In this document: piece after piece, positions 9,843 through 52,265 of the stretch
Numbering within the stretch: the first letter of the stretch is position 1
Layout of the letters: each line of letters starts with the position of its first letter
IMG/VR virus record: IMGVR_UViG_3300009151_000057
Coordinates: 11,078 to 75,077 of that record
Length of the DNA: 64,000 nt
Source of the DNA: a virus
Strand: one strand, 5' to 3'
Program-made: the position numbers and the translations under genes
The notes under the pieces: generated by a model
Told to the model about the DNA's origin: nothing
The model's input: only the letters and a program-made list of their open reading frames with translations
Databases searched by the model: none

Positions 9843-12398
9843 ATGTTCGAAAACTTTCAGAAATATGAAATGCCAACAGCAGCTGGCGTTCTTCTCCCCA
9901 AGATCAAGATAGATAAAAAATACTATGATCTAATTGGTGCTCCAGATCAATGTTCTAATTTTGATTTCCTAAGACACTTATGTTTCTACGGAGTGAAGAA
10001 AAAGGAAATTGATAAATCAGACAAAAAAGATATTTATTATAACAGAGTAAAAACAGAACTTTCTATTCTAAATGAACTTGGGTTTATTGATTATATTCTT
10101 TTGAATTGGGATATACTAAATTATTGTCATGAGAACGATATCCCCACAGGTCCAGGGAGGGGCAGTGCAGCTGGATCTTTGGTGCTTTTCTTAATTGGCG
10201 TCACAAAAGTAGATCCAATTAAATACGATCTTTATTTTGAAAGATTCGTGTCCAAGAGTAGAGCTAAGAAAATAGAATACAATGGAACAACTTACCTTGA
10301 TGGATCTTTGTTGGCTGATGTTGATAATGATATTAGTTATGAACGTCGCAAAGAAGTGATTCAATTTATTGAAAATAAATACGTAGGAAAAACTTGTAAA
10401 ATTCTTACAATGAATACCTTAAGTGGTAAACTATGTATCAAAGAATGTGGTAAAATAGTTGCTGAACTAGACGAAACATCGGTGAATGAAATTAGTGATT
10501 CAATTCCTAAAAAGTTTGGAAAAGTAGCACCCTTAAAAGAAGCGTATATTGAAAGTGAAAAATTTAAAATATTTGCGCTTAAATATCCAGAAGTTTATAA
10601 AATTGCTAGAAAGCTAGAAAATTTAAATAAAAATACAGGTGTTCATCCTTCTGGAATTGCAATCTCTCACGATGATTTGCGTGAATTAATGCCAGTGCAA
10701 AAAACTGGCGATGGAGATTTAGTTTCTGGTTACGATATGAACAACGTATCAGAATTAACTGTTAAATTTGATATTTTAGGACTTCGCACACTTTCTGTTG
10801 TTTATGATGTATGCAAGCAAATAGGAATGGATGTTACTGAAATAGACATGTCATCAAATTTAATTTTTGATAACCTTAGGGATCTAAGATGTGCGCAAGG
10901 ATTATTTCAAATCGAAGCTGATACAAATTTTTCAGTTTGCAAAAAGATTAAACCAAGGAATCTAGAAGAGCTTTCTGCAGTGGTTGCAATCGCAAGACCT
11001 GGAGCATTGGAGTTCGTATCTAATTACGCAACTTTTGTAGAGAGCGGTGATTTTCAAAGCGTTAATCCATTCTTTGACGATGTACTATCGTACACTGGTG
11101 GAATTCCATTGTATCAAGAACAGCTAATGAAGATGGCTGTAAAGGTTGGATTTACACTCGATGAGGCAGAGCAACTTAGACGCATTGTAGGCAAGAAAAA
11201 AGTAGATCAAATAGAAGCTTGGAAACAAAAAATCGAAGATAAAATTAAAGAAAATTTTTTAGATGAAAACATTGGCAATATTTTGTGGAAGGTCGCTGAA
11301 GACAGTGCAAACTACTCTTTCAATAAATCTCACTCTATATCTTATGCTATTCTTGCTGCTTGGACTATCTATCTCAAATTTAATCATCCTACTGAATTCT
11401 TTTTGAGTTTACTTAAATTAACTCAGCAAGAACAAGATCCATACGAAGAAATATCTAAAATTTCCAAAGAGCTTCCTTATTTTAATATTCAATTGCTTCA
11501 ACCAGACTTGACAAAATCTGGAATTGACTTTCAAAGAGAAAAATTAAATATTAGATATGGTTTAAATTCAATTAAGGGAGTTTCCACAAAAGTTCTTGAA
11601 TCATTGATTGAATTCAGACAGTCTAATTTTTCTAATAAATACGAAATTTTTACAGCTGCAAAAGATAGTGGATTAAATATCGGCGCATTGTCTGCGCTTA
11701 TACAAGCTGGAACACTAGATGGCTTTACAAACAATCGTTGTAGACTAGTCCTTGAAGCTCAATGCTTCAATATCCTAACAGATAAAGAGAAAAATCAATT
11801 TATTAATATTGGCGATGTTCATGAATATGATATTTTAAATTCCATCAAGAAATCAATGGATGAAAAATTAATAGGTGAAGATGGCAAACGAGTAATGACG
11901 GACAAAAGATTTGAAACATTTAAAAAGAAATACGTATCTTACAGAGAGATTTACGATAAAAATGCCAAACATCAAAAATTTGCAAACTGGTTTTTTGAAA
12001 AAAAATTATTGGGATATAGCTACTCTCATATCATAAGAGATATATTTAAAGATGCAGACGACAATAGATTTACAAATACTTTAGAATTTAGTTCTATGGA
12101 TAATAATGAAGTTGTCAAAGTAGTTGGTTGGGTGACAGATGCTGAAAAAAGAACAAGTAGAACAGGTAACAAATATTTAAAGGTTGCCATTCAAGATGAA
12201 TTGGGTTCATTATTCACAATGATGATAGATAACTCTAGAGAGACTAAAATGACGAAGTATTATGATGAGGGAGGAGTTACACCCAAAAAAGACAGCATTG
12301 TAATCTTGACTGGCAAGAAAGGTAATGATACCATGTTCTTGGATAACATTTTCATACTAGATGAAAAAATCTATATGAAACTTTCAGAATTAAAGTAG
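9843..12398 (+). CDS. dnaE: DNA polymerase III alpha catalytic core (lacks the PHP N-terminus)
   Basis: GPGRGSAAGSL, LYFERF, ADVDND (catalytic Asp), HPSG, KFDILGL, YQEQLM, YSFNKSHS, C-terminal OB fold. Confidence 0.95.
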   Translation: MFENFQKYEMPTAAGVLLPKIKIDKKYYDLIGAPDQCSNFDFLRHLCFYGVKKKEIDKSDKKDIYYNRVKTELSILNELGFIDYILLNWDILNYCHENDIPTGPGRGSAAGSLVLFLIGVTKVDPIKYDLYFERFVSKSRAKKIEYNGTTYLDGSLLADVDNDISYERRKEVIQFIENKYVGKTCKILTMNTLSGKLCIKECGKIVAELDETSVNEISDSIPKKFGKVAPLKEAYIESEKFKIFALKYPEVYKIARKLENLNKNTGVHPSGIAISHDDLRELMPVQKTGDGDLVSGYDMNNVSELTVKFDILGLRTLSVVYDVCKQIGMDVTEIDMSSNLIFDNLRDLRCAQGLFQIEADTNFSVCKKIKPRNLEELSAVVAIARPGALEFVSNYATFVESGDFQSVNPFFDDVLSYTGGIPLYQEQLMKMAVKVGFTLDEAEQLRRIVGKKKVDQIEAWKQKIEDKIKENFLDENIGNILWKVAEDSANYSFNKSHSISYAILAAWTIYLKFNHPTEFFLSLLKLTQQEQDPYEEISKISKELPYFNIQLLQPDLTKSGIDFQREKLNIRYGLNSIKGVSTKVLESLIEFRQSNFSNKYEIFTAAKDSGLNIGALSALIQAGTLDGFTNNRCRLVLEAQCFNILTDKEKNQFINIGDVHEYDILNSIKKSMDEKLIGEDGKRVMTDKRFETFKKKYVSYREIYDKNAKHQKFANWFFEKKLLGYSYSHIIRDIFKDADDNRFTNTLEFSSMDNNEVVKVVGWVTDAEKRTSRTGNKYLKVAIQDELGSLFTMMIDNSRETKMTKYYDEGGVTPKKDSIVILTGKKGNDTMFLDNIFILDEKIYMKLSELK

Positions 12399-37960: not shown

Positions 37961-38036
37961 CGCGGGGTCGTCAAGAGGTTAAGACACTAGTCTCATAAGC
38001 TAGTATGCGTGGGTTCGAATCCCACCCCTGCAACCA
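37961..38036 (+). tRNA. tRNA-Met(CAT) with an initiator-like acceptor stem
   Basis: Cloverleaf: CGCGGGG/CCCTGCA with C1xA72; anticodon arm CTAGT-CTCATAA-GCTAG; T-arm GTGGG-TTCGAAT-CCCAC; encoded CCA. Confidence 0.93.
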
Positions 38037-38053
38037 ATTTATTTAGCTAAATA

Positions 38054-38500
38054 ATGGGAAAAAGCTGGAGCGAGCCGCGCTGATCTAGTAGCCCGTTGGG
38101 GCAAACGAGGTATTTTTTTCCAAACAAGTCGCGGGTAAACTTGTTAGCGAGGATAAGCTCTCGTACAATTTTCTCAGTAACCACAAACCCTCTGGTAGTA
38201 GGTTTTGCTGTAATTGGAATGTAGCAGCATAGAAATCCTGCTGAGAAAGCGACACATGCCTCCCTGCGTAGCGGGGTGCAGGGACTGGGAATACTCAGTC
38301 GAAGAGTTGTGTGACTAATCGGAGAGACGATTAATTGAGTTCCCCCAATTGGGGTGCGACACCTGCCAGTGGCTCCATGCCGCTGGATCTGGTCTACGTT
38401 TTGCGTGGGCTGGGTTAGTGGTGTGACGAATGGAGAGACATCTGTAAAGGCGACACCTGCCAGTCTGACAAAGTGGTGTGACACTGGGAGAGACTAGATT
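38054..38500 (+). ncRNA. Large structured ncRNA of unknown class with three repeated domains
   Basis: GC-rich island with no credible ORF, directly after tRNA-Met; many hairpins; three copies of GCGACAC(A/C)TGCC...AGT(T/G)GTGTGAC-stem-GAGAGA-stem with covariation; boundaries approximate. Confidence 0.75.
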
Positions 38501-38519
38501 TACTTAAATAAACCAACAT

Positions 38520-38828
38520 ATGAAAAAAATCCTATTAGTCTTAGCATTATTTACGACAACAACCGTTGGCTTGGTTCTGTCTTCTACAGGTGCTAAAAAA
38601 ATCAATACAGATAATATTAAAATAGATTATAAATCTATTTATATGGAAGACCCAAATGATCCAAAATGCTTGGCTGCTATCTTGTCAGAAGCAAGGCGAG
38701 CAACCTCTTCAATCTTGCAAGAAGGGGATGCGCCAATTTATAAACACTGTCCCAAATGTGAGACAGGGGTGTTTCTTCCAGATAAAGATGATGTAAATCG
38801 TTGCACTTTCTGTGGAAGTCAAGAGTAA
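38520..38828 (+). CDS. Secreted or membrane-anchored protein with C-terminal Zn ribbon
   Basis: Signal-like MKKILLVLALF; CPKC...CTFC. Confidence 0.65.
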   Translation: MKKILLVLALFTTTTVGLVLSSTGAKKINTDNIKIDYKSIYMEDPNDPKCLAAILSEARRATSSILQEGDAPIYKHCPKCETGVFLPDKDDVNRCTFCGSQE

Positions 38829-38835
38829 TTTAAAT

Positions 38836-38918
38836 GGGAGAGTATACCGTTAAGGAGACGGTCCAGACTGTAAATTTGGCGTACTTGTGCTCGGTGGGAT
38901 CGTTACCCACATCTCCCA
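38836..38918 (+). tRNA. tRNA-Tyr(GTA)
   Basis: GGGAGA/TCTCCC acceptor; anticodon arm CCAGA-CTGTAAA-TTTGG; long variable arm; T-arm GTGGG-ATCGTTA-CCCAC with atypical loop; CCA not encoded. Confidence 0.88.
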
Positions 38919-38921
38919 CTT
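38897..38921 (+). repeat. 25-bp direct repeat, copy 1 (tRNA-Tyr 3' end)
   Basis: GGATCGTTACCCACATCTCCCACTT, identical to 41119-41143. Confidence 0.95.
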
Positions 38922-41547: not shown

Positions 41548-41627
41548 TCTCTGGTGGGGGAACGGTAGACCCAGAAAGCTGTTAACTTTCCGCGAAAGCA
41601 CTGTACGTTCGAATCGTACCCAGAGAG
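41548..41627 (+). tRNA. tRNA-Asn(GTT) with an extended variable arm
   Basis: TCTCTGG/CCAGAGA acceptor, G73; anticodon arm GAAAG-CTGTTAA-CTTTC; variable hairpin GC-GAAA-GC; T-arm GTACG-TTCGAAT-CGTAC. Confidence 0.88.
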
Positions 41628-41690
41628 TCAATTTTTTATCGTTGGCGCATAAAAAACAAGTTACCCTTCTTGCGAAAAAGGGATTTTTTC

Positions 41691-41765
41691 GCACCGTGAC
41701 TCAGATGGCTAGGGGACAGTCTGCAAAACTGTATTAAACTGGTTCGATTCCAGTACGGTGCTCCA
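41691..41765 (+). tRNA. tRNA-Cys(GCA)
   Basis: GCACCGT/ACGGTGC, U73, encoded CCA; anticodon arm ACAGT-CTGCAAA-ACTGT; T-arm ACTGG-TTCGATT-CCAGT; position 8 is not U. Confidence 0.9.
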
Positions 41766-51839: not shown

Positions 51840-52265
51840 GGGGGTGCAAGGATTCGACTATATCGAAGTTTGTAACTAACATGCAATGGGTAGAATTGAC
51901 CATTAAAACAATTCAAAAAATCAAACGCCGAAGATAATACTGACGCTATCTTGGCAGAAGCTGAGTACATCATCAACAACGCTGACTTGTTCATCGTTGA
52001 TGAAGTGTTCGCAGAAGCTGCATAAGAAACAGAAACGGACTCCGTTAAACTTTCTGTAAAACGTAACGGGTAGGGCAAAATCGTGAAACCCTGAGAAATA
52101 AATCGAGAGTTACTGGTAGACTTCGCGCCAGTAGGTAGACTTTAAAAGTAGGTGATGCACCACGGCAACCTTTAGTCATCAAATGCCAAACGTATCTAAG
52201 CATGTAAGTAGTTAGTTATTAATTAGTTATAGGACTCGGCTATCGTCATGCCGACACCTCCACCA
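51840..52265 (+). ncRNA. ssrA: tmRNA
   Basis: 5' GGGGGTG..GGATTCGAC and 3' CACCTCC-ACCA give a G3:U70 alanine acceptor; tag ORF 51927-52025 AEDNTDAILAEAEYIINNADLFIVDEVFAEAA*. Confidence 0.93.

Follow-up and report, generated by a model that had tools for sequence, protein, structure and literature searches.

The window analysed here is a stretch of 64,000 nucleotides (nt), positions 11,078 to 75,077 of the IMG/VR record IMGVR_UViG_3300009151_000057. The record, of 75 kb, is from an uncultured virus and is estimated to be 54% complete, and the DNA contigs carrying this stretch originate from freshwater and lake metagenomes. Between a gene for transfer RNA (tRNA)-Met and an open reading frame (ORF) of 102 amino acids (aa) lies an island of 474 nt, in which three tandem copies of a small RNA module (units 1 to 3) follow a second conserved structure, here called domain D, and an insertion called element X (Table 1). 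A first-pass annotation, made from the sequence alone, had drawn attention to the three copies and had placed them correctly: the 5′ half-motif GCGACACNTGCC occurs three times in the 64 kb window (38249, 38356, and 38450; 0.12 expected), and so does the 3′ half-motif GTGTGAC-N3-7-GGAGAGAC (38309, 38421, and 38476; 0.00 expected). The description of the island as G+C-rich and non-coding within an A+T-rich genome also held, with 47–53% G+C over 38000–38500 against roughly 30% for the genome. Within the same interval, the only long ORF in the ORF list is a 145-aa frame with a GTG start on the minus strand, accompanied by short frames. The fold of the plus strand of the island was more stable than that of shuffled sequences (z −3.0), with a z of −1.4 for the minus strand.

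Table 1. Features of the island and its immediate borders in the window
Feature	Position	Strand	Basis
tRNA-Met (CAU)	37961..38036	+	Rfam tRNA model, 58.7 bits, non-standard first pair; ARAGORN
Element X, structured 131-nt insertion between tRNA-Met and domain D, outside the repeat family	38037..38168	+	
Domain D, conserved 5′ module	38173..38245	+	
Unit 1	38249..38333	+	Covariance model R1, 43.9 bits, E 1.6e-11; covariation in alignment A6
Spacer hairpin CCCCAAUUGGGG, directly 5′ of unit 2	38343..38354	+	Sequence; kept in L140, L012, and L034-type relatives
Unit 2	38356..38441	+	R1, 33.2 bits, E 2.3e-08; covariation in alignment A7
Unit 3	38450..38497	+	R1, 55.8 bits, E 4.6e-15
ORF of 102 aa, start 22 nt 3′ of unit 3	38520..38828	+	ORF list; weak zinc-ribbon-like Pfam match only

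Core fold and spread of the module

The module consists of GCGACAC(C/A)UGC, an optional insert, AGU(G/U)GUGUGAC, and a stem of 4–6 base pairs (bp) capped by G-GAGAGA-C. Its two halves form a helix of 9–10 bp, P1, with three conserved one-base bulges, whose closing element is either a triloop or an inserted domain of two hairpins. In minimal units, the triloop has the form NNA, and a linker of one base, mostly A, leads to the second helix, P2, which covaries freely under its invariant loop. The register of P1 runs G1-C(−1), bulge A(−2), C2-G(−3), G3.U(−4), bulge A4, C5-G, A6-U, C7-G, C8-G, bulge U9, G10.U(−9), and C11-G(−10). Natural variation keeps this register: G3.U was replaced by A-U 13 times and by G-C 9 times, G10.U by A-U 11 times, and the change of C2 to U yielded U.G 17 times. 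An interpretation of the P1 flanks as C.A and G.G mismatches, or as a kink-turn, was rejected, as the observed changes break pairs in the alternative register.

Over 114 distinct units, P1 and P2 were 91.6% paired, compared to 29–45% when the 3′ partners were slid, and 174 compensatory cells were counted; the observed values were reached by none of 500 shuffles. The G.U pairs of the module were found only on the plus strand. Since they would be A.C on the opposite strand, the plus strand is the RNA strand. The closing helix had originally been described as 5 bp that swap between ACACA/UGUGU in unit 1 and ACACC/GGUGU in units 2 and 3. The swap stands, with 16 A-U against 7 C-G among relatives in alignment A6 (domain D plus unit 1, plain MAFFT), while the extent had to be revised to the longer, bulged P1. 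The constancy of the GAGAGA loop above stems that differ and still pair was confirmed; these stems read UAAUCG-GAGAGA-CGAUUA in unit 1, AUG-GAGAGA-CAU in unit 2, and CUGG-GAGAGA-CUAG in unit 3, the last followed by the U-rich AUUUACUU. A search for pseudoknots among the variable positions of 54 minimal units gave no pattern.

The covariance model R1 was built from 14 minimal units. Within the window it found only the three units. Another 264 came from about 250 fetched loci, which belong to uncultured phage contigs and to 83 bacterial genome contigs, with 123 units in the first 100 viral loci, 92 in the bacterial contigs, and 49 in loci fetched via domain D. As the units fetched via domain D were not selected on the core, the invariance of the core, about 30 bases, holds in an independently picked set as well. 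A scan of IMG/VR with the 3′ half-motif returned at least 120 contigs, many of them with 2–5 tandem copies, and in 52 of the listed loci the 5′ half-motif was located no more than 130 nt upstream. Arrays of 2–5 units keep a fixed order of unit types.

The core is likewise invariant in contigs assigned to Gammaproteobacteria, Cyanobacteria, Chloroflexi, Acidobacteria, Planctomycetes, and Bacilli. Bacterial carriers comprise many Marinobacter species, Microbulbifer, Sedimenticola, and Bellilinea, together with metagenome-assembled genomes (MAGs) labelled Pseudomonadales, Cyanobacteria, Acidobacteria, Planctomycetes, and Bacilli; their units are mostly single and minimal, with a hairpin abutting the 5′ end. 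The homologue search by covariance model, which had been suggested along with the initial description, returned homologues in large numbers and with strong covariation. The module is a real and widespread RNA family, absent from Rfam 15 and present in well over a hundred phage contigs. The underlying proposal of a structured, tRNA-linked, non-coding RNA on the plus strand, in which a conserved core is combined with covarying stems and variable inserts, is supported. The roles suggested with it, namely a decoy, a small-RNA array, a tandem aptamer, or a ribozyme, are candidate functions.

The annotation had matched the units to no known family, and the database searches agree. The covariance models of Rfam 15, including GOLLD, ROOL, C4, and the ribozymes, were silent in 38037–38510 even at E<=10. 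On the window and on 10 viral and 8 bacterial loci, Rfam searches at the gathering threshold and at E<=10 returned only tRNAs, a transfer-messenger RNA (tmRNA), and chance matches. No riboswitch or ribozyme family of Rfam, including hammerhead, twister, pistol, hatchet, hepatitis delta virus (HDV)-like, and hairpin, matched 38037–38510. When the island was compared by BLAST with 50,697 phage records, only the tRNA-Met part was matched, and the units alone gave nothing at E<=10. Searching the full-text literature for the strings GGAGAGAC, GGUGUGAC, and GCGACACC yielded only chance co-occurrences in plasmid and MALAT1 sequences.

A weak and diverged R1 match (15.2 bits, E 0.008) was found in bacteriophage P1 (NC_005856, 71164–71201; L257 and L259) and was not counted as a family member. 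This look-alike, CACC...GGUGUGAC-A-GCCGG-GAAGAG-UCCGGC, falls within the 286 nt that separate trnI (tRNA-Ile2) from ban. If it were a true member, bacteriophage P1 would be a tractable test system.

Inserts, domain D, and the chain of modules

The insert of unit 1 forms the hairpins CCCUGC/GCGGGG (38263–38268 with 38272–38277) and GACUGGG/CUCAGUC, the latter with the conserved form GGACYGGG...CYCRGUCG. Unit 2 carries an insert of type B, in which hairpin 1, CCAGUGGC-UCCAU-GCCGCUGG, comprises 8 bp with the conserved top GGC-UCCAU-GCC and is followed by a long second hairpin that bears a GNRA loop in many relatives. Unit 3 is near-minimal, with an insert of 10 nt. The insert sub-types are a GGCUCCAUGCC hairpin with a GGACYGGG hairpin, a GGCUCCAUGCC hairpin with a long second hairpin, and the minimal triloop alone. 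The architectures of units 1 and 2 recur in other contigs with compensatory changes: alignment A6 was 98.7% paired, with compensatory changes in 17 of 39 pairs, and in alignment A7 (unit 2 type) such changes affected 11 of 26 pairs. The inserts, which had been regarded as freely exchangeable, are instead recurring, covarying sub-types. Among the insert hairpins proposed for the window, GACUGGG/CUCAGUC and CCAGUGGC/GCCGCUGG are borne out by compensatory changes, whereas TCCCTGC/GCAGGGA is feasible here and is not kept in relatives.

Within unit 2, the conserved insert loop CUCCAU (38373–38378) is perfectly complementary to AUGGAG (38430–38435), which belongs partly to the P2 stem and partly to the GAGAGA loop. 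In other units the pairing is limited to CUCC/GGAG. The complementarity could reflect a loop–loop contact.

The island had been taken for one large non-coding RNA with three domains; it is instead a chain of modules that occur separately elsewhere. The unit, often single, and domain D are each found independently in other contigs, and element X is missing in close relatives. GOLLD (RF01998) and ROOL (RF03087) are comparable in being phage-borne, G+C-rich structured islands of unknown function, often near tRNAs. The island differs from them as a chain of small modules (45–105 nt) that are also found singly, rather than one large fold.

In domain D, an outer helix (38173–38179 with 38239–38245) encloses the hairpins ACCA/UGGU and GCUGUA../..UGUAGC. 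The helices of the domain were 98–100% paired in A6, with compensatory changes in 7 of its pairs, and the pattern AACCACNANCCC-N18-34-TGGAANGTA is present in 54 viral contigs. Domain D also stands alone, 5′ of a tRNA or tmRNA. Its usual upstream neighbour is tRNA-Met (CAU), which was found in about 20 related loci at a distance of 5–10 nt. The ancestral order was obtained by aligning the window with the loci L140, L012, L039, L034, L002, and L102, and reads tRNA-Met, 5–10 nt, domain D, unit 1, spacer hairpin, unit 2, unit 3, and a tRNA (Tyr, Asn, or others) or tmRNA. Throughout the aligned lineage, unit 1 is of the ACACA/UGUGU type.

Element X does not belong to this order. It is absent from L140 and from RNA-library contigs of a close relative, where 38037 is joined directly to 38169, and in L012 a tRNA-Pro occupies its slot. 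Its conserved blocks GGGAAARARCUGGAGCRAGCCG.GCUGAU ... AGGUAUUYUUUUCC ... GUCGCGGGUAAAC are common only to L034 and L220. The internal hairpin of the element covaries, and Rfam gave no match to it.

Metatranscriptome contigs cover the stretch of tRNA-Met, domain D, and units in four runs from four studies. One of them covers 38230–38537 at 95–99% identity, and three contigs from a relative of 90–95% identity show tRNA-Met joined to 38169–38385. Such contigs show presence in RNA libraries, while ends, strand, and level cannot be read from them. The four runs gave no coverage outside the tRNA and non-coding RNA stretch and are uninformative on the expression of the flanks.

Genomic context and candidate functions

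All tRNAs and tmRNAs close to the module in phage contigs share its strand, with gaps of 3–30 nt between array and tRNA in relatives. In phages, the flanking genes are on this strand as well; the module occupies either a gap between tRNAs or the site immediately 3′ of the major-capsid gene, and in most cases the following gene begins shortly after it. The location in tRNA operons, the tRNA-like spacing, and the proximity to an initiator-like tRNA-Met, or to tmRNA in relatives, would suit a trans-acting stable RNA. Excised from the tRNA precursor, it might serve as a multivalent decoy or scaffold for a universally conserved host machine or a defence nuclease, with the ribosome, RNA polymerase, RNase P, and tRNA enzymes as candidates for the titrated target. 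The arrays of 2–5 units in their fixed order are in line with such a role, as are the GNRA loops and the conserved UCCAU loop, which suggest higher-order folding. However, many units are single and minimal and lie inside mRNA operons, after the capsid gene and abutting a start codon, where a separate stable RNA is less likely. Several dispersed copies are found in some genomes, and no partner is known. We consider a trans-acting RNA unlikely.

A close parallel for the location is provided by rnaC and rnaD of T4 (the species 1 and 2 stable RNAs), structured RNAs of unknown function whose genes lie within a phage tRNA cluster, on the same strand as the tRNAs and with tRNA-like spacing. The array of the window is placed in the same manner, with tRNA-Met upstream and a tRNA-Tyr-like remnant downstream. 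In contrast to the module, the two T4 RNAs do not form modular repeats, and none are known from phages other than T4-like ones. A relation to them was rejected; with filters off, R1 reached at best 5.1 bits over the T4 tRNA region, on the strand opposite to rnaC and rnaD.

Another location is typical of one podovirus-like lineage with 19 loci (L005, L038, L057, L060, L062, L091, and 13 more), in which a gap filled by 1–3 units separates the major head protein gene (phrog_1328) from a conserved 107-aa gene. The array starts 9–17 nt after the stop codon of the head gene and ends a few bases before the next start codon. The 107-aa gene is without a Shine-Dalgarno site, and L005 and L062 contain a further conserved element between the units. 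A comparable placement is that of the Mu-gpT-DE motif of Rfam, a conserved RNA structure that immediately follows Mu-like major head genes. The module differs from it in that the podovirus-like loci gave no Rfam match, and in that it is not bound to a particular capsid family, being present in tRNA clusters and bacterial islands as well.

A position this close to a start codon raises the question of translation control, with the GGAG in the P2 loop acting as a structured ribosome-binding site or being masked by the CUCC insert loop. In many loci, the end of the last unit is followed after 8–20 nt by an AUG without any other Shine-Dalgarno sequence, and the complementarity of CUCCAU to AUGGAG in unit 2 would fit the masked form. 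However, the phage of the window is nearly free of Shine-Dalgarno sites, with a GGAG-type sequence 5–10 nt before the start in 3 of 49 plus-strand genes, yet GGAGAGAC is unchanged. Furthermore, the same module precedes untranslated tRNAs and tmRNA, and the spacing from GGAG to AUG is 12–19 nt. The loop GGAG as a general Shine-Dalgarno site was rejected, as the phage does not use such sites. In the window, the distance from this GGAG to the start of ORF 38520 is 25 nt. Translation control fits the evidence poorly and is regarded as very unlikely.

Apart from these two settings, the phage neighbours are mixed and include a primase, an ATPase, a 2OG-Fe(II) oxygenase, a homing endonuclease, and many genes of unknown function. 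In some contigs, two separate arrays are present. All-against-all clustering of the neighbouring ORFs revealed no protein family common to all contexts. The search for a partner protein led only to lineage-specific synteny, namely scaffold, capsid, 107-aa, and 398-aa proteins in one podovirus group. In bacteria, the neighbours are mixed and of mobile or defence type (integrase, primase, insertion sequence transposases, helicase, GmrSD, and methyltransferase). One Pseudomonadales MAG (G002:C1:1177884-1210062; L253 and L254) carries five units on one strand within 32 kb; this region appears prophage- or defence-like, encoding a CI/LexA-like repressor, a DUF5131 protein, and a D12 methyltransferase.

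With regard to these neighbours, tandem riboswitch aptamers that sense a universal metabolite or ion are the least probable explanation, and we rate them as extremely improbable. Aptamers would be compatible with the covarying stems, with the invariant core formed by junctions and loops, and with the tandem arrangement. On the other hand, there is no tie to any metabolic gene family, units stand between tRNAs with up to five copies in a row, and no Rfam aptamer matches. The reading fits the contexts, and the evidence as a whole, poorly.

The ends of the arrays differ from their interior. UUUU occurs within 14 nt 3′ of the last unit in 37 of 112 viral cases against a background of 7%, which is about five times commoner than chance, compared to 1 of 43 internal units. 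A scan for consensus promoters and terminators gave no excess over shuffles and called nothing at array ends, including no terminator at 38484–38510. The enrichment of the U-tract would be expected if the module controlled transcription elongation on the nascent transcript, allowing read-through or a stop at the U-tract, whether by acting on RNA polymerase as put does or by means of a boxB-like hairpin as in nut. A nut site combines a boxA with a hairpin that has a GNRA-like pentaloop and works with an N protein, whereas put is a promoter-proximal RNA of two stems that modifies RNA polymerase. The models for such control are putL and putR of HK022 and boxB of the lambda nut sites, which reportedly consist of adjacent stem-loops or of a short stem with a purine-rich loop and act in cis on the nascent transcript. 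The module is similar in having two adjacent stem-loops on the transcribed strand inside long operons and a purine-rich P2 loop on a 5-bp stem. In addition, the tail after P2 is often ACAC or ACC and complementary to the 3′ strand of P1, which would offer a terminator/antiterminator alternative, but only a minority of units have such a tail. In contrast to put and nut, the module is not promoter-proximal, has a hexaloop, lacks a boxA and a shared N-like protein, and is spread over many phyla. To our knowledge, put and nut sites are confined to lambdoid phages, and put RNAs set no precedent for identical recognition by polymerases across more than six phyla. We judge elongation control to be quite improbable.

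The explanation that we tentatively favour, as possible rather than probable, is that the module acts in cis as a punctuation element, setting or protecting RNA ends through its own fold. We arrive at this reading because the module in phages is co-oriented with its neighbours, sits tightly before the next gene, and is present in several copies per genome, and because it has no partner protein, has U-tracts after last units, and keeps an identical core across host phyla. It would punctuate polycistronic phage transcripts between neighbouring genes by its own fold, without a phage-encoded protein partner. The module might stop exonucleases, it might direct a conserved host nuclease or allow partial termination at the U-tract after the last unit, or it might cut itself. 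For the window, this would mean that the array is released from the tRNA-Met ... tRNA-Tyr-like precursor as a stable RNA of ~330 nt (38169–38500), or that it remains in front of ORF 38520 as a structured leader. That the fold has this function is an inference.

Several observations weigh against punctuation. A plain exonuclease stop or a terminator would not need about 30 invariant bases. With 4–6 bp, the P2 stem is short for a terminator, the U-tract usually begins 2–6 nt 3′ of P2, and the last unit of the window has only a weak U-rich tail (AUUUACUU). The RNA-library contigs bridge the tRNA, domain D, and the units, although these are assembled contigs and DNA carry-over is possible. In the Pseudomonadales MAG, two units are antisense to pentapeptide-repeat genes directly upstream, so co-orientation is not universal outside phages.

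Self-cleavage is the sharpest form of the punctuation reading and was weighed separately. Here, the bulges and the GAGAGA loop would be the catalytic core of a new small ribozyme, and cleavage would separate flanking tRNAs, or the capsid mRNA from the downstream mRNA. Such a ribozyme would agree with the minimum size of ~45 nt, with invariant unpaired bases in covarying stems and an optional inserted domain, and with a core that is identical across host phyla without a protein partner. Tandem copies beside tRNAs in phage and mobile-element contexts show the same association as theta ribozymes (PMC10879173). Over 70% of these are located beside tRNA-Met, suppressor tRNA, or tRNA-Leu, and they are minimal HDV-like ribozymes, proposed to process phage tRNA ends without host RNases (PMC10879173). 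Both are small RNA elements directly beside phage tRNAs, including tRNA-Met. The folds, however, differ: the theta/HDV-like fold is a nested double pseudoknot (P1, P1.1, P2, P3, and P4) with a variable region in P4 and the catalytic C in J4/2, whereas the module has two adjacent hairpins, the insert in the P1 loop, an invariant P2 loop, and no nested double pseudoknot. An HDV-like fold was rejected for both the unit and domain D, since mapping by hand did not fit and the HDV-type models of Rfam were silent. No known ribozyme model matches the module, its P1 sequence is conserved, which is unusual for ribozyme stems, and about 113 kb of related loci contained no known ribozymes. The RNA-library contigs run uncut through the units, which is weak evidence. 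Taken together, a self-cleaving module appears rather unlikely.

A broader possibility, which we rate as unlikely, is a new RNA class with intrinsic activity, most plausibly a self-cleaving ribozyme of ~45 nt and otherwise a nuclease-proof, knot-like fold, providing phages of many bacterial phyla with host-independent cutting or capping of RNAs between genes. In that case, the repertoire of structured spacer RNAs in phage tRNA operons would also include domain D and element X. A core that remains unchanged whatever the host points to the chemistry of the RNA itself or to contact with a universally conserved cell machine. Either outcome would be a new means for phages to set the ends, amounts, or read-through of tRNAs and capsid mRNA, and the module would be a compact part (about 45 nt) for RNA engineering. 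Phage tRNA clusters hold other conserved structured spacers, such as domain D and element X, that are passed over by gene callers and tRNA finders.

Features bordering the island

The tRNA-Met upstream of the island has an initiator-type bacterial acceptor stem, CGCGGGG...CCCUGCA-ACCA with a C1xA72 mismatch, and is without the three G-C pairs of the initiator anticodon stem. Downstream, ORF 38520..38828 is located between the array and the tRNA-Tyr-like sequence (38834–38921, plus strand). The latter has the anticodon loop CUGUAAA and an odd T-loop, GGGAUCGUUACCC, and both ARAGORN and the Rfam tRNA model left it uncalled. At this slot, directly after the last unit, L140 and L039 have a normal tRNA-Tyr, and the sequence in the window is probably a decayed or atypical tRNA.

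The whole island is bracketed by the near-palindromic 14-mers ATTTAGCTAAATAA (38041–38054) and ATTTACTTAAATAA (38498–38511), which are a direct and an inverted repeat at once and lie 457 nt apart. Beyond these borders, the window also encodes a tmRNA (51840–52265) and tRNA-Asn and tRNA-Cys (41548–41765), and GMP-reductase-like, GH46-like, radical SAM, DUF1501, and dCMP-deaminase-like proteins are encoded near the island.
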